Assembly: GCF_019801175.1 (NCBI RefSeq)
Contig: NZ_JAHVJR010000001.1
Span: 2,944,580-3,008,579, forward strand
Length of the DNA stretch: 64,000 nt
Reading direction: 5' to 3'
Source of the DNA: Vannielia litorea
GTDB lineage: Bacteria; Pseudomonadota; Alphaproteobacteria; Rhodobacterales; Rhodobacteraceae
How positions within the stretch are numbered: the first letter of the stretch is position 1; each line of letters starts with the position of its first letter. The notes beneath the pieces are model-generated. The model did no database searches. It worked only from the letters and a program-made list of their open reading frames with translations, and had not been told where the DNA came from. Shown here one piece after another: positions 187-49,070 of the stretch. The translations under genes and the position numbers were made by a program.

Positions 187-267
187 TCTCCGCCGTCATC
201 CGGGCTTCTGCCCTGTGCTCCCTAAATCGCGCATTGGCCTTAACAATCGGTTAGCCACATTCGGTCT

Positions 268-5225: not shown

Positions 5226-6035
5226 TTGCGATCTCAGATGCCCGACTGCTCCTCGCCAGAAGGCGGCCCCAGCGTTGCTCCGCGCGGGCTGTCCACCGCC
5301 CCCCGCACGCCGCCCCTCGGTACGCCCCGCGCGCGCCGGATCTTCATCATCCTCGCCGCTCTCGCGCTGGCCGTGCTGTCGCTGCCCGCGCTAGCCCAAC
5401 CCACCCGGCCAGAGCTTTGCGAGGCCGCCGCCAGCGAGGCCTCCGCCAAGACCGGCGTGCCGCTCTCTGTCCTTCGGGCGATCATGCTCACCGTCAGCGG
5501 CCGCAAGAGCGAGGAGGGTCTCGTGCCTTGGCCCTGGACCATCGGCGCAGGCGGGCAGCGCGTCTGGTTTGAAACCGCCGACGACGCCCGCGCCTACGCC
5601 TACCAGCAGGTCAAGGCCAGCGAACCCGCGCTTGGGCTCGGCTGTTTTCAGATCGACTATGCAAAGTACGGCCCGGAGTTCGCCTCACTCGAAGATATGC
5701 TGACTCCCCGCATCAACGCCGAGTTTGCAGCGTCTCTCTTGCTCGGTCTGCACGCCAAACACGGCGGCTGGGTCTATGCCGCTGCCGCACTCCAAGGTCT
5801 CGCTCCTGAAGAGTCCGAGACCTGGCTGGCCAGCTTCAACCGCAACCGCAGTTCGCTCCATGCGGAGGCCTACGATACGGCGCTCACCACTGTCGGCCCG
5901 CAAGGAAACCAGCCCCGGCTCAACACCTACCCGCTCGTGCAAGACACCGGCGCGGCGCAGGTCATGGGATCGCTGGTGCCCACCGCCCCGGCAACCCCGG
6001 GGGCCAGCCTCTTCGCCCCGGCAGAAGGGTTCTGA
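5226..6035 (+). CDS. Lytic transglycosylase (SLT-domain)-like protein, probably the flagellar rod-insertion muramidase
   Basis: Signal/TM segment (RRIFIILAALALAVLSLPALA) plus an SLT-like core (GLGCFQIDYAKYG...AEFAASLLLGLHAKHGGWVYAAAALQ). Immediately precedes flhA. Start codon uncertain. Confidence 0.45.
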   Translation: MRSQMPDCSSPEGGPSVAPRGLSTAPRTPPLGTPRARRIFIILAALALAVLSLPALAQPTRPELCEAAASEASAKTGVPLSVLRAIMLTVSGRKSEEGLVPWPWTIGAGGQRVWFETADDARAYAYQQVKASEPALGLGCFQIDYAKYGPEFASLEDMLTPRINAEFAASLLLGLHAKHGGWVYAAAALQGLAPEESETWLASFNRNRSSLHAEAYDTALTTVGPQGNQPRLNTYPLVQDTGAAQVMGSLVPTAPATPGASLFAPAEGF

Positions 6036-8924: not shown

Positions 8925-10028
8925 ATGGCCGGGCAGAGCGACGAAGGCGAAAAGCAACACGAGCCGACCCAGAAGCGGCTGGAGGACGCCCGCAAGAAGG
9001 GCGAAGTTCCGCGCTCGACCGATATCACCACCGCCACTGCCTATGGCGGGCTCCTGCTGGCCATGCTCACCGCCGGGGCCTCCAGCGTGGGCGCGCTCGG
9101 CACCACCGGCAGCCAGCTCCTCGCCCAGGCCGACCGTCTCGCCCCGCTGATGACCGGGCCGGGCTATGCCACCCTCTCCGGCGGGCTGCTGGCACAGGTC
9201 GCCACAGCCATCGCCCCGTGGTTCGCCATCCCCGCGCTCGTCTGTTTGCTCTCGCTCATTGCCCAGCGCGCGGTGACCTTCGCGCCCGAGAAGATCCAGT
9301 TCAAGCTCAGCCGCATCTCGCCGCTCTCCAACGCCAAGAACAAGTTCGGCCGCGGCGGGCTCTTCGAGTTCTTCAAGAGCTTCCTCAAGCTCACCATCAT
9401 CTCGGTCGTGCTCTTCGCCTACCTCGACCGCCGCCTGCCCGACATGCTCTCGGCCACCGCGCTGGAGCCGGGGCAGGTCGGGGCGCTGCTGGGGCGGCTC
9501 TGCCTCGATTTCCTGCTCATCGTCACGGCCATCATGGCCGCCATCGCCACGGTGGATTTCATGTGGCAGCGGGCCGAGCACATGCGCAAAAACCGGATGA
9601 GCCACCAAGAGCTGAAGGACGAACACAAGGAGAGCGAGGGCGATCCTTACATCCGCCAGCAGCGCCGCCAGAAGGCCATCGAAATCGCCTCGGCGCAGAT
9701 GATGGGCGAGGTGCCCAAGGCCGATGTCATCGTGGTGAACCCGCAACACTATGCAGTCGCCCTGAAGTGGAGCCGCGAGTCTGTGGGGGCGCCGGTCTGC
9801 GTGGCCAAGGGGGTGGATGAGGTCGCCGCGCGGATACGCGAAAAGGCGCAGGAGGCAGGCGTACCGATCCACCGCGATCCGCCCACCGCGCGGGCGCTCT
9901 TCGGCACCGTCCAGATCGGGGAGGAGATCCGCCCCGAGCATTATGCCCCGGTCGCAGCCGCCATCCGCTTCTCCGAGGCGATGCGCCGCAAGGCGCGGGC
10001 CAGCTATGCCCGCAGGCGCAGCCCATGA
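8925..10028 (+). CDS. flhB: Flagellar export apparatus protein FlhB
   Basis: N-terminal MAGQSDEGEKQHEPTQKRLEDARKKGEVPRS, four TM helices, and the NPQHYAVAL (NPTH-type) autocleavage site. Confidence 0.9.
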   Translation: MAGQSDEGEKQHEPTQKRLEDARKKGEVPRSTDITTATAYGGLLLAMLTAGASSVGALGTTGSQLLAQADRLAPLMTGPGYATLSGGLLAQVATAIAPWFAIPALVCLLSLIAQRAVTFAPEKIQFKLSRISPLSNAKNKFGRGGLFEFFKSFLKLTIISVVLFAYLDRRLPDMLSATALEPGQVGALLGRLCLDFLLIVTAIMAAIATVDFMWQRAEHMRKNRMSHQELKDEHKESEGDPYIRQQRRQKAIEIASAQMMGEVPKADVIVVNPQHYAVALKWSRESVGAPVCVAKGVDEVAARIREKAQEAGVPIHRDPPTARALFGTVQIGEEIRPEHYAPVAAAIRFSEAMRRKARASYARRRSP

Positions 10029-10378
10029 GTGTGAAGCGAAAGCAGATGCAGCGGCTCTCCGGGCTGATGGAGGCGCGGTTCATGGCCGGTCAGGGCACGC
10101 TCAAGCAACGCCTCGCCGAAGAGGCCCGCCTCGCCGCGGCCATCGACGAGATCGACAACGCCCGCCGTCAGGCGATGGCCGATGCCTCCGACCCGGTCCA
10201 CTTCAGCCCGTCCCACGCGCGGGCCACCAACGTGTGGCTGCGCTGGACCGATGCGCGCAAGGCGGTGCTCAACCGCGACCTCGCCCGCGCCCGCGCCGCC
10301 TCGGCCAAGGCCCGCAAGGCATTGGCCCGGTCCTTCGGACAGATGCAGGCCAGCCGGGAACTGATCCGCAAGCTATGA
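10025..10378 (+). CDS. Hypothetical coiled-coil protein downstream of flhB (FliJ-like?)
   Basis: 117 aa, entirely alpha-helical and charged. Start overlaps the flhB stop. No recognizable motif. Confidence 0.35.
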   Translation: MSVKRKQMQRLSGLMEARFMAGQGTLKQRLAEEARLAAAIDEIDNARRQAMADASDPVHFSPSHARATNVWLRWTDARKAVLNRDLARARAASAKARKALARSFGQMQASRELIRKL

Positions 10379-10831
10379 GAGCCGCTTTTCCATGAAGAGC
10401 GAGGAGGCCGCATCGGGGTAGTCGCCGAACGGCCCACGCTCCGTAAACCCCGCCGCCCGATACACCCTATGCGCCGCCTCCAGCAGGTTGCCAGTCTCCA
10501 GCCGCAGCCAGCCCAGCCCGCGCGCGCGCGCCTCCGCCTCGATCGCCGCAAGCACCTTCCCGGCCACCCCGCGCCCCCGCGCCGCCTCGTCGGTGAACAT
10601 CGATTTCACCTCGCCGTAGCCCGCCTTAACCGCCAGCGCTCCGGTGCCCACCACCCGGCCCACGTCCTGCGCGACAAAAAACACGATGTCCGGACCGGCA
10701 AGCGCGTCGATGTCGAGAAAGAAGTTATCCTCCGGCGGAAACAGCCGTTCCATCAGTGCGTGGCTCTGCTTCAGCAGAGCGGTCGCCTCCGGGTGCCGAG
10801 GGTCTCCGACCGTCACCTCGATTTCGCGCAT
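10373..10831 (-). CDS. GNAT family N-acetyltransferase
   Basis: 152 aa with an acetyl-CoA binding motif (VGRVVGTGAL...RGRGVAGKVL). Confidence 0.8.
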   Translation of the reverse strand: MREIEVTVGDPRHPEATALLKQSHALMERLFPPEDNFFLDIDALAGPDIVFFVAQDVGRVVGTGALAVKAGYGEVKSMFTDEAARGRGVAGKVLAAIEAEARARGLGWLRLETGNLLEAAHRVYRAAGFTERGPFGDYPDAASSLFMEKRLS

Positions 10832-10973: not shown

Positions 10974-13900
10974 ATGGGGACAACAACCGGGGCAGCAGGC
11001 AGCGTGCGTTTCACACGGCTCAGACTCAATGGCTTCAAGAGCTTCGTCGACCCGACCGATCTGGTCATCGCCGATGGCCTGACCGGCGTTGTCGGCCCGA
11101 ACGGCTGCGGCAAGTCCAACCTGCTGGAAGCCCTGCGCTGGGTCATGGGCGAGAACCGCCCAACCGCCATGCGCGGCGGCGGCATGGAAGATGTCATCTT
11201 CGCCGGTGCCGCCTCGCGCCCGGCCCGCAACTTCGCCGAAGTCTCGATCCATATCGACAACGCCGAGCGCCTCGCGCCCGCCGGGTTCAACGATGCCGAT
11301 GTGCTCGAGGTCGTCCGCCGCATCACCCGCGATGCCGGCTCGGCCTACAAGGCCAACACCAAGGATGTGCGGGCGCGCGACATCCAGATGCTCTTCGCCG
11401 ATGCCTCCACCGGCTCGCACAGCCCGGCGCTGGTGCGGCAGGGGCAAATCTCGGAGCTGATCAACGCCAAGCCCAAGAACCGGCGGCGGATTCTCGAAGA
11501 GGCGGCAGGCATTTCCGGCCTCTACCAGCGCCGCCACGAGGCCGAGCTCAAGCTGAACGGCGCCGAGCAAAACCTCGCCCGCGTCGATGACGTGATCGAG
11601 CAACTCGCCGCCCAGCTTTCACAGCTCGCCCGGCAGGCCCGGCAGGCCGCCCGCTATCGCGAGATCGGCACCGAGTTGCGGCAGGTCGAAGGCCTGCTGC
11701 TCTACCGCCGCTGGAAAGAGGCCGATGAGGCTGTGGCCGCCGCAGGCCACGCCCACCGCGAAACCGTTGCCGCCGCCTCCGCCGCCGAACGCGCCGTGCT
11801 GGCCGCCGAAAAGCGCCGCAGCGAGACCGATGCCGCCCTGCCCGCACTCCGCGAAGAAGAGGCGATTGCCGCCGCCGTGCTGCAACGGCTCTCGGTCGAG
11901 CGCGGCGGGTTGCGTGAGGAAGCCACGCGCGCCGAGGCCGCCATCGACACACTGAAGAACCGGCTGGTCCAGCTTGCCCGTGACATGGAGCGCGAAGACG
12001 GGCTGAACCGTGATGCCGGTGAGACCGTCCAGCGCCTCGGCTGGGAGGAGACCGAGCTGCAAAAGGCCGGTGAGGGCCACGAGGACAAGCTGGAGCAGGC
12101 CACCGAGGCCGCCCGCAAAGCTGCCTCCGTGCTCTCCGAGATCGAGGAGCAACTGGCTGAAAAGACAGAGGATGTTGCCCGCCTCGCCGCCCGCCACCAA
12201 TCTGCCCAGCGGATGCAGGCCGATGCCCGCAGCGCCGCCGACCGAGGCGAGGCCGAGGCCGCCAAGGCCCGGGCGCAGGCCGAGGAGGCGCGGGGCCGCA
12301 AGTCCGGCGCCGAGGAGGCGATGCGCGCGGCCCAGATGGCCAGCGAGATCGCCAGCGCCAAGGCCGAAGAGGCCGAGGCCGCGCTCGAGGCTGCCGATGC
12401 TGCCCGCGCCGATATCGCCGGGCGCGAGGCCGAAGCCCGCGCAGCCGCCTCCGCCGCCGAGGGCGAAACCAAGACCCTTTCCGCCGAGATGCACGCGCTG
12501 GCCCGGCTGGTCGACCGCGAGGGCACCGAGGGCGCGCAGGTGCTCGACATGCTCTCGGTCGACAAGGGCTACGAAAAGGCTCTCGGCGCCGCGCTGGCCG
12601 ACGATCTTCGCGCCCCCGCCGTCGAGGCCGACGCGCCCTCCGGCTGGGCCGCCCTGCCCGCCTATCCTGCGCCGCAGGGCCTGCCCGGCGGGCTGCATCC
12701 GCTGGCCGATTACATGCATGTGCCCGAGGTGCTCCAGCGCCGCATGGCCGAGGTCGGGCTGGTGAGCTCCCCCGAGGAGGGCGCCGCGCGGCAGGCCGAG
12801 CTGAAGCCCGGCCAGCGGCTGGTGAGCCGTGAGGGCGACCTCTGGCGTTGGGATGGCTTCCGCGCCGGGGCCGAAGATGCGCCCTCCGCCGCCGCCCTCC
12901 GGTTGGAGCAGCTGAACCGGCTGGAAGAGCTGAAGATCGACCTCAACGAGGCCGAGGCCCGCGCCGAGGGCGCACGCTCCGCCCACCGCAGCCTGTCCGA
13001 CGAGTTGGCCCGCGTGACCGAGGCCGACCGCGCCGCCCGTCAGGCCCGCCGAGAGGCCGACACCGCGCTCGCCGATGCCTCCCGCGCCCTGAACCGCGCC
13101 GAGAGCGATGCCGCCATGGCCGCCACCCGCGCCGAAGCCGCCGAGATGGCGGTGAAGCGCCATGAGGATGAGGCCGCCGATGCACGCGGCCGTCTGGCCG
13201 AGGCCGAGGCTGCGCTGTCTCAGCTCGGCGATCTGGAGGAGGCGCGCGGCAACGTCGAGGCTGCCAAGAGCCTCGTCGAGAACGCCCGGCAGGACATGCT
13301 CTCCCGCCGCGCCGTGCAGGATGAGATCCGCCGCATGGGCGAGGCCCGCGTGCGGCGCGTGCAGGAGATCGCCCGCGAAGTCGCCAGCTGGACCGAGCGC
13401 CTCACCAACGCAGAGACCCGCTCCACTGAGCTGAAGGAGCGCCACGCCGCTACCGAGGCCGAGCTGGAACAGGCCGAGGCCGCGCCGGAAGAGATCGAGG
13501 CCCGCGAGGCAAAGCTTCTGGAGGCGCTTGAGGGGGCCGAAGACCGCCGCAAAGCCGCCGCTGACGCACTGGCGACCGGCGAGAGCGCATGGCGCGAGGC
13601 TCAGGCTCAGGAGCGCGAGGCCACCAAGATCGCAGGCGATTTGCGCGAAGGGCGCGCCGCCGCACAGGCCCGCATGGAGGCCGCGCAGGAAGCCCGGAAG
13701 CTCGCCGAGGAGCGTATCCACGAAGAGCTGGAATGCGCCCCCGCAAAACTGCTCGAAACCCTGGACACCGACCCCGAGAAGATGCCCGGTGTCGATGCGC
13801 TCGAAAATGACCTCTCCCGCCTGCGCCGCCAGCGCGACGCTTTGGGCGCGGTGAACCTCCGCGCCGAGGAAGACGCCAAAGAGGTCCAGACCGAGCATGA

Positions 13901-14462
13901 CGAGTTGGTGAAAGAAAAGGCCGATCTCGAAGAGGCGATCCGCGCTCTGCGCAACGGCATCGCCGGCCTCAACAAGGAGGGCCGCGAGCGCCTTCTGACC
14001 GCCTTCGAACAGGTGAACTCAAACTTCACCCTCCTGTTCAAGCACCTCTTCGGTGGCGGTGAGGCCTCGCTCGAACTGGTCGAGTCAGATGACCCGCTGG
14101 AAGCCGGCCTCGAGATCATGTGCATGCCGCCGGGCAAGAAACTCAGCACGCTCAGCCTGCTGTCAGGCGGCGAGCAGACCCTGACCGCGCTCGCGCTCAT
14201 CTTCGCCGTCTTCCTCGCCAACCCCGCCCCGATCTGCGTGCTCGACGAGGTGGATGCCCCGCTTGACGATGCCAACGTCACCCGGTTCTGCGACCTGCTG
14301 GACGAGATGACGCGGCGGACAGATACCCGCTTCCTCATCATCACCCACCACGCGGTGACGATGAGCCGGATGGATCGCCTCTTCGGCGTCACCATGCAGG
14401 AACAGGGCGTGAGCCAACTGGTCTCGGTCGACCTCAAGAAGGCCGAAGCGCTCGTGGCCTGA
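10974..14462 (+). CDS. smc: Chromosome segregation protein SMC
   Basis: 1162 aa. Walker A (GPNGCGKSNLLEAL), long coiled coils, hinge, C-terminal signature/Walker B (LSGGEQTLTALALIFAVF...VLDEVDAPLDDAN). Confidence 0.9.
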   Translation: MGTTTGAAGSVRFTRLRLNGFKSFVDPTDLVIADGLTGVVGPNGCGKSNLLEALRWVMGENRPTAMRGGGMEDVIFAGAASRPARNFAEVSIHIDNAERLAPAGFNDADVLEVVRRITRDAGSAYKANTKDVRARDIQMLFADASTGSHSPALVRQGQISELINAKPKNRRRILEEAAGISGLYQRRHEAELKLNGAEQNLARVDDVIEQLAAQLSQLARQARQAARYREIGTELRQVEGLLLYRRWKEADEAVAAAGHAHRETVAAASAAERAVLAAEKRRSETDAALPALREEEAIAAAVLQRLSVERGGLREEATRAEAAIDTLKNRLVQLARDMEREDGLNRDAGETVQRLGWEETELQKAGEGHEDKLEQATEAARKAASVLSEIEEQLAEKTEDVARLAARHQSAQRMQADARSAADRGEAEAAKARAQAEEARGRKSGAEEAMRAAQMASEIASAKAEEAEAALEAADAARADIAGREAEARAAASAAEGETKTLSAEMHALARLVDREGTEGAQVLDMLSVDKGYEKALGAALADDLRAPAVEADAPSGWAALPAYPAPQGLPGGLHPLADYMHVPEVLQRRMAEVGLVSSPEEGAARQAELKPGQRLVSREGDLWRWDGFRAGAEDAPSAAALRLEQLNRLEELKIDLNEAEARAEGARSAHRSLSDELARVTEADRAARQARREADTALADASRALNRAESDAAMAATRAEAAEMAVKRHEDEAADARGRLAEAEAALSQLGDLEEARGNVEAAKSLVENARQDMLSRRAVQDEIRRMGEARVRRVQEIAREVASWTERLTNAETRSTELKERHAATEAELEQAEAAPEEIEAREAKLLEALEGAEDRRKAAADALATGESAWREAQAQEREATKIAGDLREGRAAAQARMEAAQEARKLAEERIHEELECAPAKLLETLDTDPEKMPGVDALENDLSRLRRQRDALGAVNLRAEEDAKEVQTEHDELVKEKADLEEAIRALRNGIAGLNKEGRERLLTAFEQVNSNFTLLFKHLFGGGEASLELVESDDPLEAGLEIMCMPPGKKLSTLSLLSGGEQTLTALALIFAVFLANPAPICVLDEVDAPLDDANVTRFCDLLDEMTRRTDTRFLIITHHAVTMSRMDRLFGVTMQEQGVSQLVSVDLKKAEALVA

Positions 14463-14504: not shown

Positions 14505-16019
14505 TCACCCCTTGATACTCTCCGCCGAGGCCATCCCTTCGGCCATCGACTTGCCACCGATCTTGTCGCGTACGGCCTTCTCGATGCGCTCGCCAATGTC
14601 ACCGTCAATGTTGCGCCAGTACTCGAACGCCCGCACCAACACCTTCTCGCTGACCCCGGCGCTCAGGTGCCCGGCGACGTTATTCACCAGGCGCTCACGG
14701 CCATCGTCGTCCATCACCTCGCGCACCAGCGTTCCGGCCTGGCTCCAGTCGTCGTCATCCTCGCGCAGCGTATAGGCCTCGCGCACCATCTCGCCGTCGC
14801 TGTGCCAGAGCCCGGCTTCGTGCTCGTGAGGCTGTGCCTCGGGCCCGCCGTAGGTGTTGGGCGCATAGACCGGGTCGCTCACCGGCACCGTCCGCCCCGC
14901 ACCATCCTTCGAGTAGCTATGCACCGGCGATTGCGCCTTGTTCACCGGAATTTCCTTGTAATTCACCCCAAGCCGCGCGCGGTGGGCATCGGCGTAGGAA
15001 AATCCCCGTGCCAGCAGCATCTTGTCGGGCGAAAGGCCCACGCCCGGCACCATGTTGTTCGGCTCGAAAGCCGCCTGCTCGATCTGGGTATGAAAATCGG
15101 TCGGGTTCCGATCGAGCACCATCCTGCCGACCTCGATCAGCGGGTAATCGGCATGCGGCCAGACCTTGGTGAGGTCGAACGGGTTGATCCGGTAGGTCTT
15201 TGCATCGTCCCACGGCATCACCTGCCACTTCAGTGTCCAGCTCGGGTGGTTGCCCTCGCGGATCTGGTTGAACAGGTCGGCCCGGTGATAGTCGCCATCC
15301 GTGCCCGCCAGCCTGTCGGCCTCTTCCTGCGTGAGGTGCGCGTTGCCGTCGCCTTGGTCGGTATGAAAGTGGAATTTCACCCAAAACCGCTCGCCCTCAG
15401 CGTTCACCAGTGAGTAGGTGTGCGAGGAATAGCCATTCATCTCCCGCCACGTCCGCGGAATGCCCCGGTCGCCCATCAGGTAAGCCACCTGGTGCGCGCT
15501 CTCGGGCGACAGCGTCCAGAAATCCCACTGCATGTCATGGTCGCGCAACCCGTTGTCCGCGCGGCGTTTCTGGCTGCGGATGAAGTGCTGAAACTTCATC
15601 GGATCCCGGATGAAGAAGATGGGCGTGTTGTTGCCCACCATGTCGAAGTTGCCTTCCTCGGTGTAGAACTTCACCGCAAAGCCGCGCGGGTCGCGCCACG
15701 TGTCAGGGCTGCCCTGCTCGCCCGCCACGGTGGAAAACCGGGCGAGGATGTCGGTCTTCGCGCCCGGCTGAAACACCTTCGCCTTGGTGTATTTCGAAAC
15801 ATCCGCCGTCACTTCGAAATGCCCGAAGGCACCCGAGCCCTTTGCATGCGGTTGCCGCTCCGGGATGCGCTCGCGGTTGAAGTTGGCCATCTGCTCCAGC
15901 AGGTAATGGTCATTCAGCACGATCGGGCCGTCGCGGCCTACGGTCAGCGAATGCTCATCGCTCTGGACCGGAATGCCGGCATCGGTGGTGGTGTGCGGGG
16001 TGGAAGGTTTCTTGGCCAT
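14505..16019 (-). CDS. Monofunctional heme catalase
   Basis: Catalase signatures ([23 protein letters not shown]; distal His; proximal Tyr region). Start taken at [10 protein letters not shown], the internal Met of the 521-aa ORF. Confidence 0.9.
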
Positions 16020-16123
16020 GTCGGGCTGCCTTTCGTTCAGGTGGCGTTGCCAACAGAACGATCCAGCCAATCAGAGGTTCCGGCCCACGCCGGACTGGCC
16101 GTGGCGCAGGCGGCCTCGGCCGC

Positions 16124-18621: not shown

Positions 18622-18706
18622 ATTCCGCGCCGCGAGCCGGGCGCCTGAAACTGTTTCTAAAGGAATCAGGGTTAAGCCCAGGTTGAAGCCCGTGGGAGAA
18701 ACCCCG

Positions 18707-23348: not shown

Positions 23349-25061
23349 TCAGCGCCGCTCGCCCACCTCGCGGGTTTCGCTCAGGGTCATCCCGGCAGAG
23401 AGCGCCTCAGGGTCCACCACCAGCTCCAGCACCGCGAGCCGCCCGCTGGCCTGCGCCCGAACGAAGGCCCCGGCAAAGTCTTCCGTCCGCTCCACCCGCT
23501 CGCCAAACCCGCCATAGGCCTGCACCAGCGCCACGAAATCCGGGTTGGCCAGGTCGGTGCCCGAGACGCGCCCGGGGAAGGTCTTTTCCTGATGCATCCG
23601 GATCGTGCCATAGCGCCCGTTGTTGACCACCAGAACGATCGGCGCGGCGCCATGTTGCATCGCGGTCGAGAGCTCGTTGCAGGTCATCTGAAAACAGCCA
23701 TCTCCCGCCAGTGCCACCACCACCCGCTCGGGATGGCGCAGCTTGGCGGCAATGGCGGCGGGCAGGCCATAGCCCATCGAGCCGGAAGTCGGCGCAAGCT
23801 GGGTGCCGTAACGCTTGAACTGGTAGTAGCGATGCAACCAGGCGGCATAGTTGCCGGCGCCATTGGTCAGCACCGCATCGTCGGGCAGGTTCTCCGAAAG
23901 CCAGTGAATCACCTGCTCCAGCTTCAGTGCGCCGGGGGTCTCCTTCGGCCGGATCCACTTTTCATAGGCAGCGCGGTAATCGGCCGTCCACTGCCGCTTG
24001 TCGCCGCGCGGGCGCACGGAGCGGGCGAGCTTGGCCAGCACCACCGGCGCCTCCGCGACGAAGGGCAGCTGCACCGGGTAGACCTTGCCGATCTCGTCCG
24101 GATCGGGGTGAACGTGGATGATCCGCTTGTGCGGCGCGGCCACGTCGAGCAGCTTGTAGCCGCCCATCGTCACATCGCCCAGCCGGGTGCCCAGCGCCAC
24201 GATCAAATCGGCCTGTCGCACGGCATCGGCAAGGCCCGGGCTCATGCCCACGCCGAGATCGCCGATGTAATTGGGGTGCCGGTTGTCCATGTAATCCTGC
24301 CGCCGGAACGGCACCGCGACGGGCAGATCCATCGCCTCGGCAAAGCGGGCGAGGTTGGCGGAGGCCTCGGCACTCCAGCCCGGCCCGCCCGCGATCAGTA
24401 GCGGCCGGTGCGACCGCTCGATCTGGTGGATCACCAGCTCGGCAAAATTCGAGCCTTCCGGCGAGGTGAAAAAGGAGTCATCCGGGCGGTCGGCCACGTT
24501 GACCTTGTCGTGCAGCATGTCCTCGGGGAGCGAAAGCACCACCGGCCCCGGACGGCCCGACATCGACAGGCGGAAGGCGCGGTCGATGTATTCCGGCAGG
24601 CGCGCGGCGTCATCCACCTCCGCCGTCCACTTGGCGACGGGGGCCAGAAAGGCCTTCATGTCGACTTCCTGAAAGGCGTCGCGGTCGCGCTGCTCGCGCG
24701 GCACCTGCCCGACGAACACCACCATTGGCGTGCTGTCGTGCTTGGCCACATGCAGCCCGGCAGAGGCATTGGCCGCTCCCGGCCCGCGGGTCACGAAGAG
24801 CACGCCGGGCTCGCCGGTCATCTTGCCCTCGGCCTCGGCCATCATCGCCGCGCCACCTTCCTGGCGGCAGACGATGTTCTTGATGCCGGAGTCCACGAGC
24901 CCGTCGAGCACCGGCAAAAAGCTCTCTCCCGGCACCGAGAACACGCGTTCGATGCCACGGATGGCGAGTTGGTCGACAAGCACCTGCCCGCCATGCCGAA
25001 GCTCAGCGGCCCGCGGCGCGGCGGAAGGTTTGGGCGTTTTTAGTGGCACGACGGTCTTCAT
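23349..25061 (-). CDS. Thiamine-pyrophosphate-dependent enzyme, acetolactate synthase large-subunit family
   Basis: TPP N-domain (VFSVPGESFLPVLDGL), central domain, and the TPP-binding GDG...NN motif (ALAGDGCFQMTCNELSTAMQHGAAPIVLVVNNGRYGTI). Confidence 0.8.
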   Translation of the reverse strand: MKTVVPLKTPKPSAAPRAAELRHGGQVLVDQLAIRGIERVFSVPGESFLPVLDGLVDSGIKNIVCRQEGGAAMMAEAEGKMTGEPGVLFVTRGPGAANASAGLHVAKHDSTPMVVFVGQVPREQRDRDAFQEVDMKAFLAPVAKWTAEVDDAARLPEYIDRAFRLSMSGRPGPVVLSLPEDMLHDKVNVADRPDDSFFTSPEGSNFAELVIHQIERSHRPLLIAGGPGWSAEASANLARFAEAMDLPVAVPFRRQDYMDNRHPNYIGDLGVGMSPGLADAVRQADLIVALGTRLGDVTMGGYKLLDVAAPHKRIIHVHPDPDEIGKVYPVQLPFVAEAPVVLAKLARSVRPRGDKRQWTADYRAAYEKWIRPKETPGALKLEQVIHWLSENLPDDAVLTNGAGNYAAWLHRYYQFKRYGTQLAPTSGSMGYGLPAAIAAKLRHPERVVVALAGDGCFQMTCNELSTAMQHGAAPIVLVVNNGRYGTIRMHQEKTFPGRVSGTDLANPDFVALVQAYGGFGERVERTEDFAGAFVRAQASGRLAVLELVVDPEALSAGMTLSETREVGERR

Positions 25062-25145
25062 CTGGCGGCCCCGGGGATTCGTCTCAGCCTGTGCCATTCG
25101 CGCGGCCCCGGCAAGCCTCCGGCCCGACTATTTTCTGCTGTGGGG

Positions 25146-25547
25146 TCAGTGAGTCAGCGCGCCGTCGGTTCCGGTCGCCGCCGGGGTGAATCCGCCACCG
25201 TGGTACTCAACCATCGCGGCGAGGTCGTCGACCGGGGTGCCCGTGCGCAGGAAGGCGCAGGCATTGGATGCGATCGAAAAGATCGACCCGTCCGAGAAGA
25301 AGCTGGTGTCGGTGACGAAGATCACCTTGGTCTCGGGCCTGCGGTAGGCGGCAAAATCGGCCACCGCCAGCGCGCTGCCCTCGGCCAGCACGAGGTTCAG
25401 CACGATCACCTTGGCCTCGCCGTGGCGCAGCACATCCACCGCATCGCCCTGGCCGCCAACGAGCGTCACCTGGCAGCCTTGCCGCTCCAGATGCCGAGCC
25501 CAGAATCCTCCGAGCTCCTCGTCGCTTTCCACGATCAAGACTTTCAC
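25146..25547 (-). CDS. Stand-alone receiver-domain protein with Asn at the expected phospho-acceptor position (atypical response regulator)
   Basis: CheY-like fold (MKVLIVESDEE...KVIVLNLVLAEGS...KVIFVTD). By alignment to CheY D57 (FVISDWNMP) this protein has N (VIVLNLVL). Confidence 0.6.
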   Translation of the reverse strand: MKVLIVESDEELGGFWARHLERQGCQVTLVGGQGDAVDVLRHGEAKVIVLNLVLAEGSALAVADFAAYRRPETKVIFVTDTSFFSDGSIFSIASNACAFLRTGTPVDDLAAMVEYHGGGFTPAATGTDGALTH

Positions 25548-25620
25548 ACCACGCCTCGCTGACCGGAAGGTTCCGGACGCAACGCCCCCTCAGCCCACTA
25601 TGGGCCAGAATACCTAAACG

Positions 25621-25748
25621 CACGTTAACACATTGGACATAATGGTTAACGCGATTCCCCGGCTCCGGAGGGACAAATCTAAAATCAGCCTCAAATCAGC
25701 GCCTTGTCGCCCATCACCGGTGAACGGCCTGTTAACCACTTAACGTTT
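25621..25748. promoter_or_regulatory. Divergent promoter region carrying four (G)TTAAC hexamers
   Basis: Seen directly: cGTTAACa, gGTTAACgc, tGTTAACc, cTTAACgtt. The hexamer is rare in this high-GC sequence. TTAAC is the CtrA half-site, but the spacing here is not the canonical N7. Confidence 0.3.
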
Positions 25749-25818: not shown

Positions 25819-26988
25819 ATGCGCACCGCCCTTCTCGCCGCCAGCCTGCTCGCCGCCGCCCCGCTTCAGGCGCAAGAGGCGCCCTGCGGCGGTGACTTCA
25901 CCGCCTTCAAGGCCGCTATCGCCGCCGAGGCCCCCTCCCACGGCGTCAGCGCCGACACCGCCAGCCGCTTCCTGTCCGGTGTCCGGCAAGACCAATCCGT
26001 GCTCAAGGCCGACCGCGCCCAAGGCGTCTTCCAGATGCCCTTCGTCGACTTCTCCCGCCGCCTCATCAGCCAGAGCCGGATCGACCGGGGCCGGGCCAAT
26101 GCGCGCGAGTACGATGCCATCTTCACCGAGATCGAACAGCGCTACGGCGTCTCCCGCGGCGTCCTCCTCGCCTTCTGGGCCTTCGAAACCGACTACGGCG
26201 CGGTGCAGGGCGATTTCAACACGGTGAACGCCCTCGTTACCCTCGCCCACGACTGCCGCCGCCCCGGCCTCTTCCGGCCGCAGGTCTTTGCCGCGATGAA
26301 GCTCTATGAGTCCGGCGATCTCGACCCCGCCCGCACCACCGGCGCATGGGCGGGCGAGATCGGCATGGTCCAGATGCTCCCCGAAGACATCATCGAGAAT
26401 GGCGTCGATGGCGACGGCGACGGCCACGTGAGCCTCAAGACATCGGCCCCCGACGCGCTGATGTCCGGCGGCAAGATGCTGCAATCGCTCGGCTGGCGCG
26501 CCGGCGAGCCGTGGCTCCAAGAGGTCACGATCCCCGACACGCTCGACTGGTCGCAGACCGGGCTGGAAACCGAGAAGCCCGCTTCCGAATGGGCCGCCCT
26601 CGGCGTGCAGCCCCGCGAGGGCAGCTTTGCCGATCTGCCCGCTTCGCTCCTGCTCCCGCAGGGCCGCAAGGGCCCGGCCTTCCTCGCCTACCCCAACTAC
26701 CGCGTCTACTTCGAGTGGAACCAGAGCTTCGTCTACGTCACCACCGCCGCCTATTTCGCCACCCGGCTGGAGGGCGCCCCTGTGTTCAACGCAGGCGCCC
26801 CCGATCCGGGTCTCGCGGATGGGCAAATGAAGGCCCTGCAACAGAAACTTCAGGCGCAGGGCCATGACGTGGGCGAGGTCGACGGCATCTTGGGCGCAAA
26901 AACCCGCGCCGCCGTGCGCGCCGAACAGGCCCGCCTCGGCCTGCCCGCCGATGGCTGGCCCACCGCGGAACTGCTGAACAGTTTATGA
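25819..26988 (+). CDS. Lytic murein transglycosylase (MltB family) with C-terminal peptidoglycan-binding domain
   Basis: Signal peptide. MltB-like core (LLAFWAFETDYG...EIGMVQMLPED...DGDGDGHV). C-terminal PG_binding_1-like domain (LQQKLQAQGHDVGEVDGILGAKTRAAVRAEQARLGL). Confidence 0.8.
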   Translation: MRTALLAASLLAAAPLQAQEAPCGGDFTAFKAAIAAEAPSHGVSADTASRFLSGVRQDQSVLKADRAQGVFQMPFVDFSRRLISQSRIDRGRANAREYDAIFTEIEQRYGVSRGVLLAFWAFETDYGAVQGDFNTVNALVTLAHDCRRPGLFRPQVFAAMKLYESGDLDPARTTGAWAGEIGMVQMLPEDIIENGVDGDGDGHVSLKTSAPDALMSGGKMLQSLGWRAGEPWLQEVTIPDTLDWSQTGLETEKPASEWAALGVQPREGSFADLPASLLLPQGRKGPAFLAYPNYRVYFEWNQSFVYVTTAAYFATRLEGAPVFNAGAPDPGLADGQMKALQQKLQAQGHDVGEVDGILGAKTRAAVRAEQARLGLPADGWPTAELLNSL

Positions 26989-30888: not shown

Positions 30889-30962
30889 GCGCGTGTAGCT
30901 CAGCGGAAGAGCGCCGGAATTTAATCCGGAGGCCGGAGGTTCAACTCCTTCCACGTGCGCCA
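30889..30962 (+). tRNA. tRNA-like gene with canonical acceptor, D and T arms and encoded CCA, but a 6-nt anticodon loop (ATTTAA); probable degenerate tRNA (Lys-TTT-like?)
   Basis: Hand-folded. Acceptor GCGCGTG/CACGTGC (one G-U pair), D-stem GCTC/GAGC, anticodon stem CCGGA/TCCGG with only 6 loop nt, T-arm GGAGG-TTCAACT-CCTTC, discriminator G, CCA. Total 74 nt. Confidence 0.45.
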
Positions 30963-31035
30963 TGGATGTAGCTCATTCGGGTAGAGCACCAGACTTCTAA
31001 TCTGGGTGTAGCGGGTTCGAATCCCGCCATCACCG
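30962..31035 (+). tRNA. tRNA-Arg(TCT)-like gene; perfect D, anticodon (CTTCTAA loop) and T arms but a mismatched acceptor stem and no encoded CCA
   Basis: D-stem GCTC/GAGC; anticodon stem CCAGA/TCTGG with loop CTTCTAA; T-arm GCGGG-TTCGAAT-CCCGC. The 3' acceptor CATCACC pairs with only 4 of 7 of the 5' ATGGATG. Its 5' end abuts or overlaps the CCA of the previous tRNA. Confidence 0.5.
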
Positions 31036-32726: not shown

Positions 32727-33710
32727 TCACACCTCCTGCGCCGCCTCCCGCGCCACCGCCTCCAAGTCCATCCCCGGCTCGCCCACGGCCACCCATGCGG
32801 CACCCGGCGCCAGCCAGCGCACCATCTCCACACCGTCAAAGCTGCGCGGGGTAAACTCTTCGCTCCCCGGACCCTCCCGGCCCAGCACGCAAAGCGCCAT
32901 CACCTGGCCCTCAGCATCGGTATAGAGCAGCTGCGCCACCGGCTTGCCGCCTGCCACCAGCAGGCGTGCGCCCTGGAAGGTAAAGCCAGAGGCGGCAAGA
33001 TCCGGCACGCTGAACGGCACACCCGTCTCCTTGCCGAGCCATGTCTCGATGTGGTCCTTGTCACTCGCCGGCACCTCCACGAGGTGCGCCACCTGCCGGG
33101 CATAGACCCGGTGGTAATCGGCAATCTCGTCCATCCAGCCGCGCGTGGCATGGCCATCGGCCAGTTCCGTGCCTGGCACCAGCGCCCGCGTCATCAGCGC
33201 CCCGGCCCCCGCGCCCACCAAAAGCAGCGCCAGCGCCGCGGCGATGGATGAGGAAAAGAACGGTTGGCGGTTCTCATTGGCCGCGGCATAGGCCGGCGGC
33301 GGCATCTCTTCGCGCGGCGCATTGCCCCCGGCTGGAATGCCCCCAACCGAAGGCGCGCCGCCGCCCAGCGCTGCTTGCCCCGGCACGCCCGGCTCGGCCT
33401 CGGCCACATCCGGTGCAGGGGCCGCGCCCTCGCCGGCCGGCGTCGCAGCGGCCACCGTGGGCCGGGCCTCTTCCAGCCGGGTGCCCGGCGTGGTGGTGGC
33501 CGATATCGTCGCCAGCAGCTCGGGCGGCAACGGTGCGTCGAGCAGGCTGTCAAAGGCCACGCCCACCTCGGCATCCAGCGCGCCCGCCGCCTCGATCTCT
33601 GCAGCAAGGCTCGGGTCTTCGGCGGCTTCGGCCTCGAAGGCAGCGGCCTCGGCGGCGCTCATCGCCCCGTCGAGATAGGCAGAGATGCGGTCCATCCGAT
33701 CGGCCATCAT
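32727..33710 (-). CDS. Anti-sigma factor (zf-HC2/RskA-like N-domain, Pro/Ala-rich linker, single TM, periplasmic C-domain)
   Basis: N-terminus MDRISAYLDGAMSAAEAAAFEAEAAEDPSLAAEIEA is typical anti-sigma. Start overlaps the sigma gene's stop by 4 nt. Confidence 0.7.
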   Translation of the reverse strand: MMADRMDRISAYLDGAMSAAEAAAFEAEAAEDPSLAAEIEAAGALDAEVGVAFDSLLDAPLPPELLATISATTTPGTRLEEARPTVAAATPAGEGAAPAPDVAEAEPGVPGQAALGGGAPSVGGIPAGGNAPREEMPPPAYAAANENRQPFFSSSIAAALALLLVGAGAGALMTRALVPGTELADGHATRGWMDEIADYHRVYARQVAHLVEVPASDKDHIETWLGKETGVPFSVPDLAASGFTFQGARLLVAGGKPVAQLLYTDAEGQVMALCVLGREGPGSEEFTPRSFDGVEMVRWLAPGAAWVAVGEPGMDLEAVAREAAQEV

Positions 33711-34210
33711 GCCGCCTCCCCTGCCAGAGCCGCCCGCAAGCGCACACGCGCCGCCGACATGCGTGACATCACCGTGCCCGGCGGAATATCGAGGATCGAC
33801 GCCGCCTCGGCATAGCTGTGGCCCTCCACCGAGACGAGCAGCAGCACCGATGAGAGCCCCTCGGGCAGCGCCATGATCTGCGCCATCACCTGCCCCGCGC
33901 GAGTGGCCTCCTCACCGCCCGCATGGCTCACCAGTTCGGCGGCCTCCTCAGCTGGCACCGTGCCCTCGCCCGTTCGCACCTGCCGCTTGCGCATCTCCGA
34001 TGTCCAGAGATTGCGCGCCATCGTGTAAAGCCACGGCAGCAGCGGCTGCTCGGGGTTCCACTTGGCGGCATTGGTTATGGCACGTTCGCAGGTCATCTGA
34101 ACAAGGTCATCGCCCTCGGATGGGTGGCGGGTCAGGCTGAGCGCAAAGCGCCGCAGCCGCGGAAGGCTGGCCAGAAGCTCGGCCTGAAAATCTGTCGCGT
34201 CGGGCTGCAA
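33707..34210 (-). CDS. ECF (sigma-70 family) RNA polymerase sigma factor
   Basis: Region 2 (LPRLRRFALSLTRHPSEGDDLVQMTCERAI) and region 4 HTH (LPEGLSSVLLLVSVEGHSYAEAASILDIPPGTVMSRMSAARVRLR). Confidence 0.85.
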   Translation of the reverse strand: MQPDATDFQAELLASLPRLRRFALSLTRHPSEGDDLVQMTCERAITNAAKWNPEQPLLPWLYTMARNLWTSEMRKRQVRTGEGTVPAEEAAELVSHAGGEEATRAGQVMAQIMALPEGLSSVLLLVSVEGHSYAEAASILDIPPGTVMSRMSAARVRLRAALAGEAA

Positions 34211-36815: not shown

Positions 36816-39371
36816 ATGATCACCTCGGTCGTCCTCAGCCTGACCATGCTCCTGCTGTCCGCCGGGGCGCTCTATGCCATCTACTCCTCCCAAAGCCTCG
36901 CCCGCCGCCCACCGCTCCGCGATGCCGCCATCGGCACCGCCCTCGGCATCACCGTCGCCCTGCTGATCGAAACACACGGGCTGACCGAGCTTGTCGCGCC
37001 CCTCGTGGCCAAATCCGGCCCACTGGTGCTGGCCGGCTATCTCGGCGGCCCCATCGGCACGGCGGCGGCAGCGGTGTTTGCCCTCGGCGCCCGGGTCTGG
37101 ATGGGCGGGCCGGTGATGGCCGAGGGCCTGCTGCTCATCGCCGGCCTGCTGCTCACCGGCCTCGCCATCCGCGCCCTCGCGCCCCCGCGCGACTGGCCCC
37201 GCGTGCCGCTCCGCCACCTCGCCCTGCTGCTCATCGGGTTCGCCTTCGTGCAATCCATCGTGCCGATGCTTCCCCGCGTCAGCGCCGCGATCGGCGCGCT
37301 TGGCAGCCCTGTCGTCATCCTGCCAGGCATCCTGCTGGGCGGAGCCATCTCGATCGTCCTCACCTGGGCCTTGAACGAGATCGCCCGCCGCACCGCCCAC
37401 GGCCTCACCGAGAAAGACGAGCTGCTCGCCCGCATGGGCATCATCCTGCCCCACGCCGGTGTGGGCACCTTCCGCTACTACGGCGAGAGCAACACCTACC
37501 ACGTCGACGAGGGCTTCATGCGGCTCTACGGCCTGTCGCGCCCTCCCGGCCCGATCGATTACGCCACCTTCGACGCCCTCGTTCACCCCGACGACCGCGC
37601 CCGGATGGCCCGCGCGAAGGACGAGGCCGAGGCCGGCAGCACCGCCCGCGACCAGATCGACATTCGCGCCATCCGGTCCGATGGCACCCCGCTCGAGATC
37701 CGCCTCAACTGGGTGGTGTTCCGCGAGGCCCCTGACGGGCCGGTCGAGATGGTCGGCGTCCACCGCGACCTCACCGATATCCGGCGGGCGCAGCAGGCGC
37801 TCGACAAGGCCGAGCAGCGCTCCTCCACCATCGCCGCCAACCTGCCGGGCGTGGTGGTGCAACTGCTGATCGACAAAGATGGCAGCCGCCGCCTCACCTA
37901 CATCGGCCCCAAGTGCCTCGAGGTCTGGGGCTACCCTGCGGAGGAGGTCATGGCCGACAATTCGCTCATCCGCAGCGGCCAGCCGCCCGAGGATGTCGAG
38001 CGTTTCGTGGCCGACATGCGCGCGGCCCTGGTCCGCGGTGCGCCCATCCGCAGCCGCATCCCGGTCACCGACCGCATCGGCACCACCCGCTGGATGGAGT
38101 TCTATGGCTCCGGCACGCCCCTGCCCGAGGGCGGCCATCAGGTCGATGGCATCTTCATCGATGTCTCCGCCGAGGTCGCCGCACGCGCCGAGGCCGACCA
38201 CAATCTCGAACTGGCCCACAGCGCCCAGCGCAACGAGGCCATCGGCAAGCTCACCGGTGGCGTGGCGCATGATTTCAACAACATCCTCGCGGTGATCCTC
38301 GGCAACCTCGAGCTCCTGCGCGAAGACATAAGCTCGGCTGACAGGCTCTCGCTGATCGATGCCGCCATCGAGGCCAGCCAGCGCGGCGCGCAGCTCACCC
38401 GCGCCATGCTCGCCTTCGCCCGCAAGTCCCGGCTCGATCCCGAGGTGGTCGACCTCAACGACATCGCCCGCCAGTCCGACAACTGGATGCGCCGCGCCCT
38501 GCCCACCTCCGTCTCGGTCGAAACCTCGCTGCTGGGCGGCCTCTGGCCGGTGCTGGCCGACCCGGCCACGCTGGAGAGCGCCCTGCTCAACCTCATCGTC
38601 AATGCCCGCGATGCAATGCGGGGCAAGGGCAGCCTCACCATTGAAACCGCCAATGTGCGCATCGACCAAAGCTACATCGACGCCCGCAATGAAGAGATCG
38701 CGCCGGGCCGCTACGTCATGCTCGCCGTCTCCGACACCGGCACCGGCATCGCGCCCGAAGACCTGCCGCATATCTTCGAGCCGTTTTATTCCACCAAGCC
38801 CCCCGCTTCCGGCTCCGGGCTGGGGTTGTCGATGGTCATGGGCTTCGTCCGCCAGTCCGGCGGCACCGTGCAGGTCTATTCCGAGCCGGGCACCGGCACG
38901 ACCTTCAAGCTTTACTTTCCCGCCGCCGATGGCGCCCCGATGCAGCCCGCCGCGCCCGCGCCCGTGGCCGATGAAACCCCGCCCACCGGCAAGCGCCTGC
39001 TGCTGGCCGAGGATGAGAGCGGCGTGAACGACGTGCTCCTCTCCATCCTCACCCGCGCCGGCTACGAGGTGACCGCCACCGCCACCGGCGATGCCGCCCT
39101 CGCCGCCTTTCTGGAGGAGCCGGAAGCCTTTGATGTGGTGCTGACCGATATCGTCATGCCCGGCGCGCTTCAGGGCACCGGGCTGGCCCGCGCCCTGCGC
39201 GCCCGCCGTCCCGATCTGCCCATCGTGTTCCTCTCGGGCTACGCCTCCGAGGCCACGGTGCATGGCAACGGGCTCCACGCCGACGACATCCGCCTTATGA
39301 AGCCCGTGCCCCGCGACGAGCTGCTCGCCGCGGTCGAGAGGGCAATGGCCCAAGGGGCCACGCCCGGCTAG
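36816..39371 (+). CDS. Hybrid sensor histidine kinase/response regulator (membrane N-domain, PAS domains, HisKA, HATPase, C-terminal receiver)
   Basis: H-box AHDFNNILAVILGNLELL. N, G1 and G2 boxes (NLIVNARDAM...DTGTGI...GSGLGLSMV). Receiver with D (VVLTDIVMPG). Confidence 0.85.
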   Translation: MITSVVLSLTMLLLSAGALYAIYSSQSLARRPPLRDAAIGTALGITVALLIETHGLTELVAPLVAKSGPLVLAGYLGGPIGTAAAAVFALGARVWMGGPVMAEGLLLIAGLLLTGLAIRALAPPRDWPRVPLRHLALLLIGFAFVQSIVPMLPRVSAAIGALGSPVVILPGILLGGAISIVLTWALNEIARRTAHGLTEKDELLARMGIILPHAGVGTFRYYGESNTYHVDEGFMRLYGLSRPPGPIDYATFDALVHPDDRARMARAKDEAEAGSTARDQIDIRAIRSDGTPLEIRLNWVVFREAPDGPVEMVGVHRDLTDIRRAQQALDKAEQRSSTIAANLPGVVVQLLIDKDGSRRLTYIGPKCLEVWGYPAEEVMADNSLIRSGQPPEDVERFVADMRAALVRGAPIRSRIPVTDRIGTTRWMEFYGSGTPLPEGGHQVDGIFIDVSAEVAARAEADHNLELAHSAQRNEAIGKLTGGVAHDFNNILAVILGNLELLREDISSADRLSLIDAAIEASQRGAQLTRAMLAFARKSRLDPEVVDLNDIARQSDNWMRRALPTSVSVETSLLGGLWPVLADPATLESALLNLIVNARDAMRGKGSLTIETANVRIDQSYIDARNEEIAPGRYVMLAVSDTGTGIAPEDLPHIFEPFYSTKPPASGSGLGLSMVMGFVRQSGGTVQVYSEPGTGTTFKLYFPAADGAPMQPAAPAPVADETPPTGKRLLLAEDESGVNDVLLSILTRAGYEVTATATGDAALAAFLEEPEAFDVVLTDIVMPGALQGTGLARALRARRPDLPIVFLSGYASEATVHGNGLHADDIRLMKPVPRDELLAAVERAMAQGATPG

Positions 39372-48944: not shown

Positions 48945-49070
48945 TCCGTTAACACGTCGCCGTCATGCACATCTGCATATGCATAGGATGTGCATGGGAT
49001 GTGCATCAGTTGTGCATCAACAAAATATAGCGTTAACGCCCATCCGGCCCCGCCGCACAGGCATTAACGC
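48945..49070. repeat. AT-rich convergent intergenic island with six TGCAT/ATGTGCAT direct repeats and three (G)TTAACGC motifs
   Basis: Seen directly: gtcATGCACatcTGCATATGCATaggATGTGCATgggATGTGCATcagttGTGCATcaa, flanked by cGTTAACacg, cGTTAACGCc and cATTAACGCa. Confidence 0.5.

Follow-up and report, generated by a model that had tools for sequence, protein, structure and literature searches.

A candidate CckA inhibitor of the Osp family with asparagine at the phospho-acceptor position in Vannielia litorea

A 64-kb stretch of the Vannielia litorea genome (contig NZ_JAHVJR010000001.1; hereafter the window) contains a gene for a 133-residue protein with a receiver fold, in which asparagine occupies the position of the phospho-acceptor aspartate of response regulators. 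The identical protein is on record from V. litorea and Vannielia sp. as WP_222470734.1, where its database label is 'response regulator transcription factor'. By its sequence the gene is an ortholog of osp, and we consider it likely that its product inhibits the histidine kinase CckA independently of phosphorylation and takes part in a negative feedback loop that is probably driven by CtrA.

The name osp was first given by Oh, Ko and Kaplan in 2003 (PMC9430884). In Rhodobacter sphaeroides, Osp is a 120-residue, single-domain protein resembling a response regulator; it has an aspartate at position 51 (D51), whereas the pair of acidic residues that follows beta1 and the lysine of beta5 are both missing (PMC9430884). 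Vega-Baray et al. (2022, mBio; PMC9430884) demonstrated that Osp inhibits the autokinase activity of CckA through direct binding. CckA heads the CckA-ChpT-CtrA phosphorelay, which governs motility and the cell cycle. In that study, CckA autophosphorylation was cut by about 50% at an Osp:CckA ratio of 0.25:1 and nearly fully at 1:1, CckA dephosphorylation was unchanged, the interaction involved the transmitter domain of CckA, and Osp was specific for CckA in that PhoR was not inhibited. Loss of osp switched on the CtrA-dependent flagellar genes, and CtrA activates osp, which forms a negative feedback loop; the abundance of Osp is also under post-transcriptional control (PMC9430884).

Orthology of the V. 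litorea gene to osp

Two comparisons connect the V. litorea gene to Osp. In Table S2 of PMC9430884 the Osp of V. litorea DSM 29440 appears under the accession SIO31853; this protein shares 70-75% identity with the 133-residue protein and also carries Asn51. In addition, BLASTP against the 120-residue Osp of Cereibacter johrii JA192 aligned 60 identical residues of 116 (52%) without a gap (E 3e-40), with N51 opposite D51. Because of the SIO31853 link and the gap-free match to C. johrii Osp, we regard the gene as the osp ortholog of this organism. The C. johrii locus had been fetched by using a published osp primer (PMC9430884) as a DNA pattern; most matches of this pattern were unrelated chance hits (Alistipes, Acidobacteriota and others), and the C. 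johrii match was the only relevant one. The 120-residue open reading frame (ORF) found in this way has the C-terminus EHYVHAA and a DGSIFTH segment, as the primers and text of PMC9430884 predict; the R. sphaeroides osp primer encodes DGSIFTH (PMC9430884). C. johrii JA192 is itself on the Osp list of that paper, as are the genera Jhaorihella, Aliiruegeria and Sediminimonas, from which further homologs were obtained.

The V. litorea protein resembles R. sphaeroides Osp (RSWS8N_09785) in being a single receiver-like domain with a glutamate followed by a non-acidic residue after beta1 (E7-S8, the broken acidic pair) and with no lysine after beta5, so that both Osp hallmarks described in PMC9430884 are present. 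Further features common to the two proteins are the motif FFSDGSIF, N95 and, close to the C-terminus, a His/Tyr pair. A CtrA-type motif, putative and with one mismatch in V. litorea, precedes both start codons by a comparable distance. Both proteins come from the Rhodobacterales/Roseobacteraceae, where Cereibacter and Defluviimonas have the protein too. More than 1300 homologs were found at E <= 0.001, and the named ones all belong to roseobacter-group genera. FlaC, the 'swim-or-stick' regulator of Silicibacter/Ruegeria sp. TM1040, may possibly be a further member of the family.

General family models describe the protein poorly. Its score against Pfam Response_reg (PF00072) was 22.7 bits, where the gathering cutoff is 30.2, for residues 3-82 and profile positions 1-80 of 111, and no NCBIfam model came near its own cutoff. 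The ORF has a GTG start and a TGA stop, and its GC content at third codon positions is 0.85, which is typical in codon usage for real genes of this 67% GC window. The CAGCGAGGC block around the ribosome-binding site (Table 1) is kept in two relatives. The GTG start (25545-25547) occurs in all three osp genes examined from the clade that carries Asn51; the osp genes of Tropicimonas and Cereibacter start with ATG.

Asn51 at the acceptor position of a receiver fold

The initial annotation had described this protein as a stand-alone receiver with Asn at the position of CheY D57 and with the conserved Thr and the fold retained, and three alignments together with a structural model bear this description out. 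In a phmmer search of the PDB, 'VIVLNLVL' was paired with 'VVLLDLLL' of Aquifex NtrC1. When a family profile of 120 homologs was compared with Escherichia coli CheY by hhalign, N51 matched D57, E7 matched D12 and S8 matched D13. The Asn51 column of the family alignment holds Asp for the majority of relatives. An AlphaFold2 model computed from a 120-sequence alignment has the (beta/alpha)5 fold with a mean predicted local distance difference test (pLDDT) score of 90.6 and a predicted template modelling (pTM) score of 0.84. Its elements are beta1 (residues 2-6), alpha1 (10-22), beta2 (26-30), alpha2 (33-42), beta3 (47-51), alpha3 (59-69), beta4 (74-79), a short alpha4 (89-92), beta5 (96-101) and alpha5 (106-117), so N51 is the final residue of beta3 and T79, at the position of CheY T87, ends beta4. 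Nearly all of the top 50 Foldseek matches in the PDB are receiver domains or receiver-containing proteins (TM about 0.72-0.80, rmsd mostly 1.7-2.8 A). The protein therefore shares the fold of canonical CheY-like receivers (PF00072; TM about 0.8) but lacks their acceptor Asp, second acid and Lys.

The residues around the acceptor site differ from those of CheY throughout the family. At position 8, the equivalent of CheY Asp13, 98 of 122 homologs have Ser and only one has Asp. The equivalent of CheY Lys109 is also absent: residues 101-105 read R-T-G-T-P, a Lys is not conserved at this place in the family, and Thr104-Pro105 is nearly invariant instead. Equivalents of CheY Asp57, Asp13 and Lys109 are thus all missing, and only the positions of Asp12 (as Glu) and Thr87 are retained. 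Asn95 is essentially invariant in the family alignment. The FFSDGSIF motif is near-invariant across the 122 homologs and present in most of 150 cluster representatives.

Glu56 in the segment LAEGS, which the initial annotation had named as the residue that a shifted alignment could bring into the acceptor site, was considered as an alternative acceptor and rejected: it sits in the beta3-alpha3 loop and is aligned to CheY N62. More generally, a conventional regulator that is still phosphorylated, either on a nearby acid such as Glu56 or Asp64 or after a shift of the alignment, could draw on the retained Glu7 and Thr79 and on the acids of the beta3-alpha3 loop. However, all three alignments and the model place Asn51 at the end of beta3, the equivalents of Asp13 and Lys109 are gone, the Pfam score falls below its cutoff, and even the Asp-bearing ortholog of R. 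sphaeroides was not phosphorylated in vitro (PMC9430884). We regard such a regulator as very improbable.

The protein has no output domain, and the sole addition to the receiver fold is a 16-residue tail that is predicted to be disordered (pLDDT below 50 for residues 124-133). With this tail the protein reaches 133 residues, compared with 120 in R. sphaeroides Osp. The tail has the form GG[FLY]-x(9-12)-[RPT]H with a conserved terminal His and was seen only in the clade of Vannielia and Oceanicola sp. D3. Other Osp homologs end 2-6 residues past the EHY motif, as in C. johrii Osp, which ends ...VHAA. Because Osp abundance is controlled post-transcriptionally, the tails of Osp proteins could be degradation signals.

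Recurrent replacement of Asp51 by Asn

At position 51 the 122 close homologs divide into 102 with Asp and 20 with Asn, and none has a third residue. A wider sample, the 150 best representatives of clusters at 50% identity, contains D in 101, N in 31, S in 5, G in 3, Q in 3, E in 2, A in 1 and R in 1. The Asn-bearing sequences were then placed on a neighbour-joining tree from which the position-51 column had been excluded. Ten of them fall into a clade of Vannielia, Oceanicola sp. D3 and metagenomic sequences (an eleventh sequence of this clade was left off the tree) and nine are scattered, and for eight of these nine the nearest neighbour carries Asp. The tree requires at least nine changes at position 51, a count that is soft since only 116 columns were available. 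Asn51 has apparently arisen several times independently. Asp-bearing orthologs use GAC where the V. litorea gene has AAC, and the replacement is therefore a single G-to-A transition.

The ratio of nonsynonymous to synonymous substitution rates (dN/dS) was 0.18-0.31 within the Asn-bearing clade and similar in comparisons between Asn- and Asp-bearing genes, so purifying selection on the protein persisted after the loss of Asp. These values bear on the idea that the gene is a decaying remnant of a response regulator without a function. That three of the five catalytic residues are lost and that the Pfam score is weak would fit such a remnant. In contrast to this expectation, the ORF is intact with gene-like codon usage, dN/dS is low across the Asn-bearing clade, more than 1300 homologs keep invariant family motifs, the promoter block and ribosome-binding site are conserved, and the function of the ortholog has been established genetically and biochemically (PMC9430884). 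We therefore find a functionless remnant hardly credible and reject a pseudogene on the basis of dN/dS and motif conservation.

Taken together, Asn51 is a common, tolerated and recurrent replacement of an Asp that the Osp family does not use as a phospho-acceptor. Asn51 is not the cause of phosphorylation independence, because the Asp-bearing members also lack the second Mg-binding Asp and the Lys, and the R. sphaeroides Osp with Asp51 is not phosphorylated. The proposal in the initial annotation that the protein signals without phosphorylation is thus supported by its orthology to Osp, while the reason given for it, the Asn, does not hold for a family that lacks these residues as a whole. Because close relatives allow only Asp or Asn, the data suggest that the side chain of residue 51 keeps a structural role.

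Proposed action on CckA

The Asn found at position 51 in V. litorea is the same residue that was engineered into R. sphaeroides Osp as D51N. In swimming assays D51N Osp still repressed motility: the ring measured 1.12 cm, where wild-type Osp gave 1.64 cm and the absence of Osp 2.5 cm. In earlier work D51A Osp was functional too (PMC9430884). The V. litorea protein is the natural counterpart of the D51N mutant, and we therefore infer that it would act as a phosphorylation-independent CckA inhibitor. By analogy with R. sphaeroides Osp, this receiver look-alike, which would not be phosphorylatable, is expected to bind the transmitter (DHp-CA) region of the hybrid kinase CckA. Binding would block CckA autophosphorylation, and a stoichiometric kinase inhibitor is the best-supported model. 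As a consequence, the CtrA regulon, and with it the flagellar genes nearby, would be expressed less strongly. CtrA in turn probably activates the osp promoter, which would close a negative feedback loop. The role in motility or the cell cycle that the initial annotation thought plausible gains support from this orthology to a CckA inhibitor, and its other suggestion, a constitutive phospho-mimic of an active regulator, is replaced by inhibition of a kinase.

Other single-domain proteins act on histidine kinases in related ways. FixT of Sinorhizobium meliloti and Caulobacter crescentus is a single-domain receiver that has no acids before alpha1 and is not phosphorylated; it inhibits histidine kinase autophosphorylation, leaves dephosphorylation unchanged and is removed by proteolysis (PMC9430884). 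Its target is FixL and not CckA, so the likeness to Osp, as described in PMC9430884, is one of mechanism. DivK of Caulobacter and the Rhizobiales is a single-domain response regulator that lowers the kinase activity of CckA, and Osp has been proposed to take over this role in the Rhodobacterales, which lack DivK (PMC9430884). DivK, however, is a genuine phospho-accepting receiver that acts via DivL, whereas Osp acts on CckA directly and free of phosphorylation. The DivK match of the V. litorea protein in the phmmer search of the PDB was marginal (E about 1).

CtrA-type sites upstream of osp

The spacer of 270 bp between osp and the divergently transcribed gene holds three of the five GTTAAC sites of the window, where 1.6 would be expected in the whole window, and also its sole TTAACCAT (25642-25649). 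TTAA-N7-TTAA sequences with one mismatch, the form of a degenerate CtrA box, occur five times in the window (0.64 expected), and two of the five lie in this spacer. The TTAAC-rich promoter noted in the initial annotation is therefore real. An Rfam scan of the window gave no match in the osp promoter region.

Read on the strand of osp, the segment from 25650 down to 25614 is GTTAACCATTATGTCCAATGTGTTAACGTGCGTTTAG. It contains the one-mismatch box TTAACGTGCGTTTAG, whose distance of 66 nt from the start codon falls inside the range of 43-124 nt given for the CtrA motif TTAACCHTTYGTTAA upstream of osp orthologs (Fig. S7 of PMC9430884). It also contains the conserved block GTTAACCATTATGTCCAATGTGTTAAC. 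The form GTTAACCATTrTGkCsAATGTGTTAAy of this block is kept in V. litorea DSM 29440 and Oceanicola sp. D3, while the rest of the spacer has diverged. Without its central 10 bp (ATGTCCAATG), the block would read TTAACCATTTGTTAAC, a perfect match to the published TTAACCHTTYGTTAA, so the half-sites of the Vannielia clade lie two helical turns apart and not one. The osp promoter of C. johrii has a perfect TTAACCACGCGTTAA and that of Tropicimonas a site with one mismatch.

A second TTAAC cluster in the same spacer, TGAACGGCCTGTTAACCACTTAAC, faces the divergent lytic transglycosylase gene (Table 1) and is partly conserved in V. litorea DSM 29440. The transglycosylase may possibly be regulated by CtrA as well, like a flagellar SltF-like enzyme.

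Further CtrA-like sites were noticed elsewhere in the window. The one-mismatch box TTAACAATCGGTTAG (240-254, forward strand) lies just upstream of the fliL-motA operon, and another, TTAAGCCCAGGTTGA (18672-18686, forward strand), is found where fliI and the rod genes diverge, which resembles in its location the flgB2-fliI2 region that CtrA controls in R. sphaeroides. The other two GTTAAC sites (48948-48953 and 49032-49037) are 84 nt apart in the short spacer between a 264-residue ORF (48106-48900, forward) and a 312-residue ORF (49077-50015, reverse).

Gene neighbourhood

Features of the osp locus are collected in Table 1. The flagellar neighbourhood reported in the initial annotation was confirmed, with one gene, that of a thiamine-pyrophosphate (TPP) enzyme, between the flagellar cluster and osp. 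The cluster is of the alpha type, extends from 268 to 23317 and encodes FliL, MotA, FlhA, FliR, FlhB, FliI, FlgC, FliE, FliQ, FlgF/G, FlgA and FlgH; its end proximal to osp (up to 23317) holds FlgF/G, FlgA, FlgH and an ORF of FliL size. The gap between osp and the TPP enzyme gene contains no terminator-like site, and the two genes are possibly co-transcribed. On the other side, the transglycosylase gene is followed by mntP and then by a PALP-domain gene that is trpB-like by sequence. The order transglycosylase, osp, TPP enzyme and flagellar genes is kept in V. litorea DSM 29440 and Oceanicola sp. D3.

Table 1. Positions of features at the osp locus, counted from the first nucleotide of the window
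Feature	Position	Strand	Remarks
Thiamine-pyrophosphate enzyme gene	23349..25097	-	48 nt downstream of osp; Pfam TPP_enzyme_N/M/C; NCBIfam PRK08199, 815 bits
osp ortholog ORF	25146..25547	-	133 aa; GTG start, TGA stop; protein begins MKVLIVESDEE
C-terminal tail GGF...TH, codons 118-133	25149..25196	-	Clade-specific, predicted disordered
FFSDGSIF motif, codons 83-90	25278..25301	-	Family-specific, nearly invariant; beta4-alpha4 loop and short alpha4
Codon AAC, Asn51	25395..25397	-	Phospho-acceptor position (CheY Asp57, Osp Asp51) by alignments and end of beta3 in the model
Glu7-Ser8 codons	25524..25529	-	Positions of the CheY Asp12-Asp13 acidic pair; second acid gone (hhalign)
GAGG, Shine-Dalgarno sequence (ribosome-binding site)	25554..25557	-	6 nt 5' of the GTG, read from sequence
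TTAACGTGCGTTTAG, one-mismatch CtrA box TTAA-N7-TTAA	25614..25628	-	Ends 66 nt before the GTG
Conserved block GTTAACCATTATGTCCAATGTGTTAAC	25624..25650	-	Holds TTAACCAT and two TTAAC half-sites with starts 21 nt apart
Second TTAAC cluster TGAACGGCCTGTTAACCACTTAAC	25721..25744	+	Faces the divergent lytic transglycosylase gene (25819)
MltB_2-type lytic murein transglycosylase gene	25819..26988	+	Divergent; Pfam SLT_2 and PG_binding_1; TIGR02283, 324 bits

The flagellar cluster is interrupted by genes for a GNAT acetyltransferase (10373-10831, reverse), a 1162-residue SMC/RecF-like ATPase (10974-14462, forward) and a catalase (14505-16070, reverse). Four forward-strand ORFs of the cluster had no Pfam match at E <= 1e-5, namely 820-1188 (122 residues), 2756-5164 (802), 5226-6035 (269) and 10025-10378 (117), and these may be lineage-specific flagellar or motor proteins.

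A hybrid histidine kinase of 851 residues is encoded at 36816-39371 on the forward strand, 11 kb from osp. It has PAS domains, a HisKA domain with the H-box AHDFNN, a HATPase domain and a receiver, preceded by a hydrophobic N-terminal region of about 190 residues that looks multi-spanning by eye. It scored 280 bits against the Brucella CckA model (residues 255-840) and 244 bits against the Caulobacter CckA model, where the cutoffs are 1000 bits. With scores below both equivalog cutoffs and an atypical N-terminus, this kinase may be either the CckA of the organism or a paralog.

Rfam matched nothing in the window except two tandem tRNA genes, 5 nt apart at 30889-31031 on the forward strand. In the reverse-strand stretch 32727-34210, the gene of an extracytoplasmic function (ECF)-type sigma factor (33707-34210) overlaps by 4 nt a 327-residue ORF without a family match, an arrangement that resembles the layout of a sigma/anti-sigma pair.

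Evidence against the proposed role and alternative readings

Several observations weigh against placing the V. litorea protein in a CtrA-controlled loop on CckA. CckA binding, kinase inhibition, dependence of the promoter on CtrA and the effect on motility are all carried over from an ortholog of 52% identity. His115, whose change to Asp (H115D) inactivates R. sphaeroides Osp (PMC9430884), is replaced by Tyr with His at 116, so that residues 114-116 read EYH and not EHY, a swap that is frequent in the family. The genes cckA, chpT and ctrA were not identified within the window. At the promoter, where R. sphaeroides osp has a clean TTAA-N7-TTAA, the perfect TTAAC half-sites start 21 nt apart and not 11 nt and are accompanied by a box with one mismatch, and a perfect TTAA-N7-TTAA is absent from the whole window. 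V. litorea is also missing from the PMC9430884 list of osp promoters with a CtrA motif detected by MEME. On account of the imperfect box, the 21-nt spacing and this missing entry, control of the osp promoter by CtrA is likely but unproven. Finally, the synteny is different in Tropicimonas, and R. sphaeroides osp is not beside flagellar genes but is flanked by a TetR gene and a hypothetical gene (PMC9430884). Since the flagellar neighbourhood is kept in neither, it is specific to the clade and, taken alone, weak evidence.

The only serious rival is a shift of partner, in which the protein is an Osp-like or FixT-like inhibitor or adaptor that works off the CckA-CtrA axis on a different target, which could be another hybrid histidine kinase, for example that encoded at 36816-39371, or a component of the flagellum or of proteolysis. 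The traits of the Vannielia clade, that is, the 16-residue tail, EYH at the position of His115, relocation by the flagellar cluster and an atypical promoter, would be consistent with such a change, a hybrid kinase with a CckA-like transmitter is encoded 11 kb away, and FixT demonstrates that single-domain receivers are able to inhibit other kinases. However, the core of the protein aligns without gaps to bona fide Osp and keeps FFSDGSIF, N95 and T104-P105, and the R. sphaeroides protein acts specifically on CckA, leaving PhoR uninhibited (PMC9430884). The nearby kinase is only CckA-like and has the hydrophobic N-terminus noted above. We consider a shift of partner unlikely and favour CckA as the target.

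A different possibility concerns the meaning of Asn51 itself. Because engineered D51N repressed swimming more than wild-type Osp, the Asp could be a release switch, and natural Asn51 alleles would then be locked-on forms of Osp in which this switch has repeatedly been abandoned. The Asp, present in about 70-85% of the family, might act by binding metal, by being phosphorylated transiently or by some other modification. In the Vannielia clade Asn51 coincides with the disordered tail, possibly a degron, with a gene moved beside the flagellar cluster and with a CtrA box in which exactly 10 bp are interposed; taken as a whole, these changes would mean that the CckA feedback loop has been rewired in this clade. 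We hold this locked-on interpretation to be doubtful.

Implications for the Osp family

The Osp family was characterised in 2022, and a close homolog of the V. litorea protein was already named Osp by its discoverers; the osp ortholog described here opens no new class of system. What is modestly new is the recurrent change from Asp to Asn, the two being the sole residues tolerated at this position in close relatives, together with the clade-specific tail and the CtrA box expanded by 10 bp. The natural recurrence of Asn at position 51 is the evolutionary counterpart of the published D51N experiment (PMC9430884), and it supports the view that Osp acts through binding and not through phosphotransfer. 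A gene labelled only as a response regulator thereby obtains a specific and testable function: in roseobacters the CckA-ChpT-CtrA relay drives the expression of flagellar genes, and the protein would exert negative feedback on this relay.

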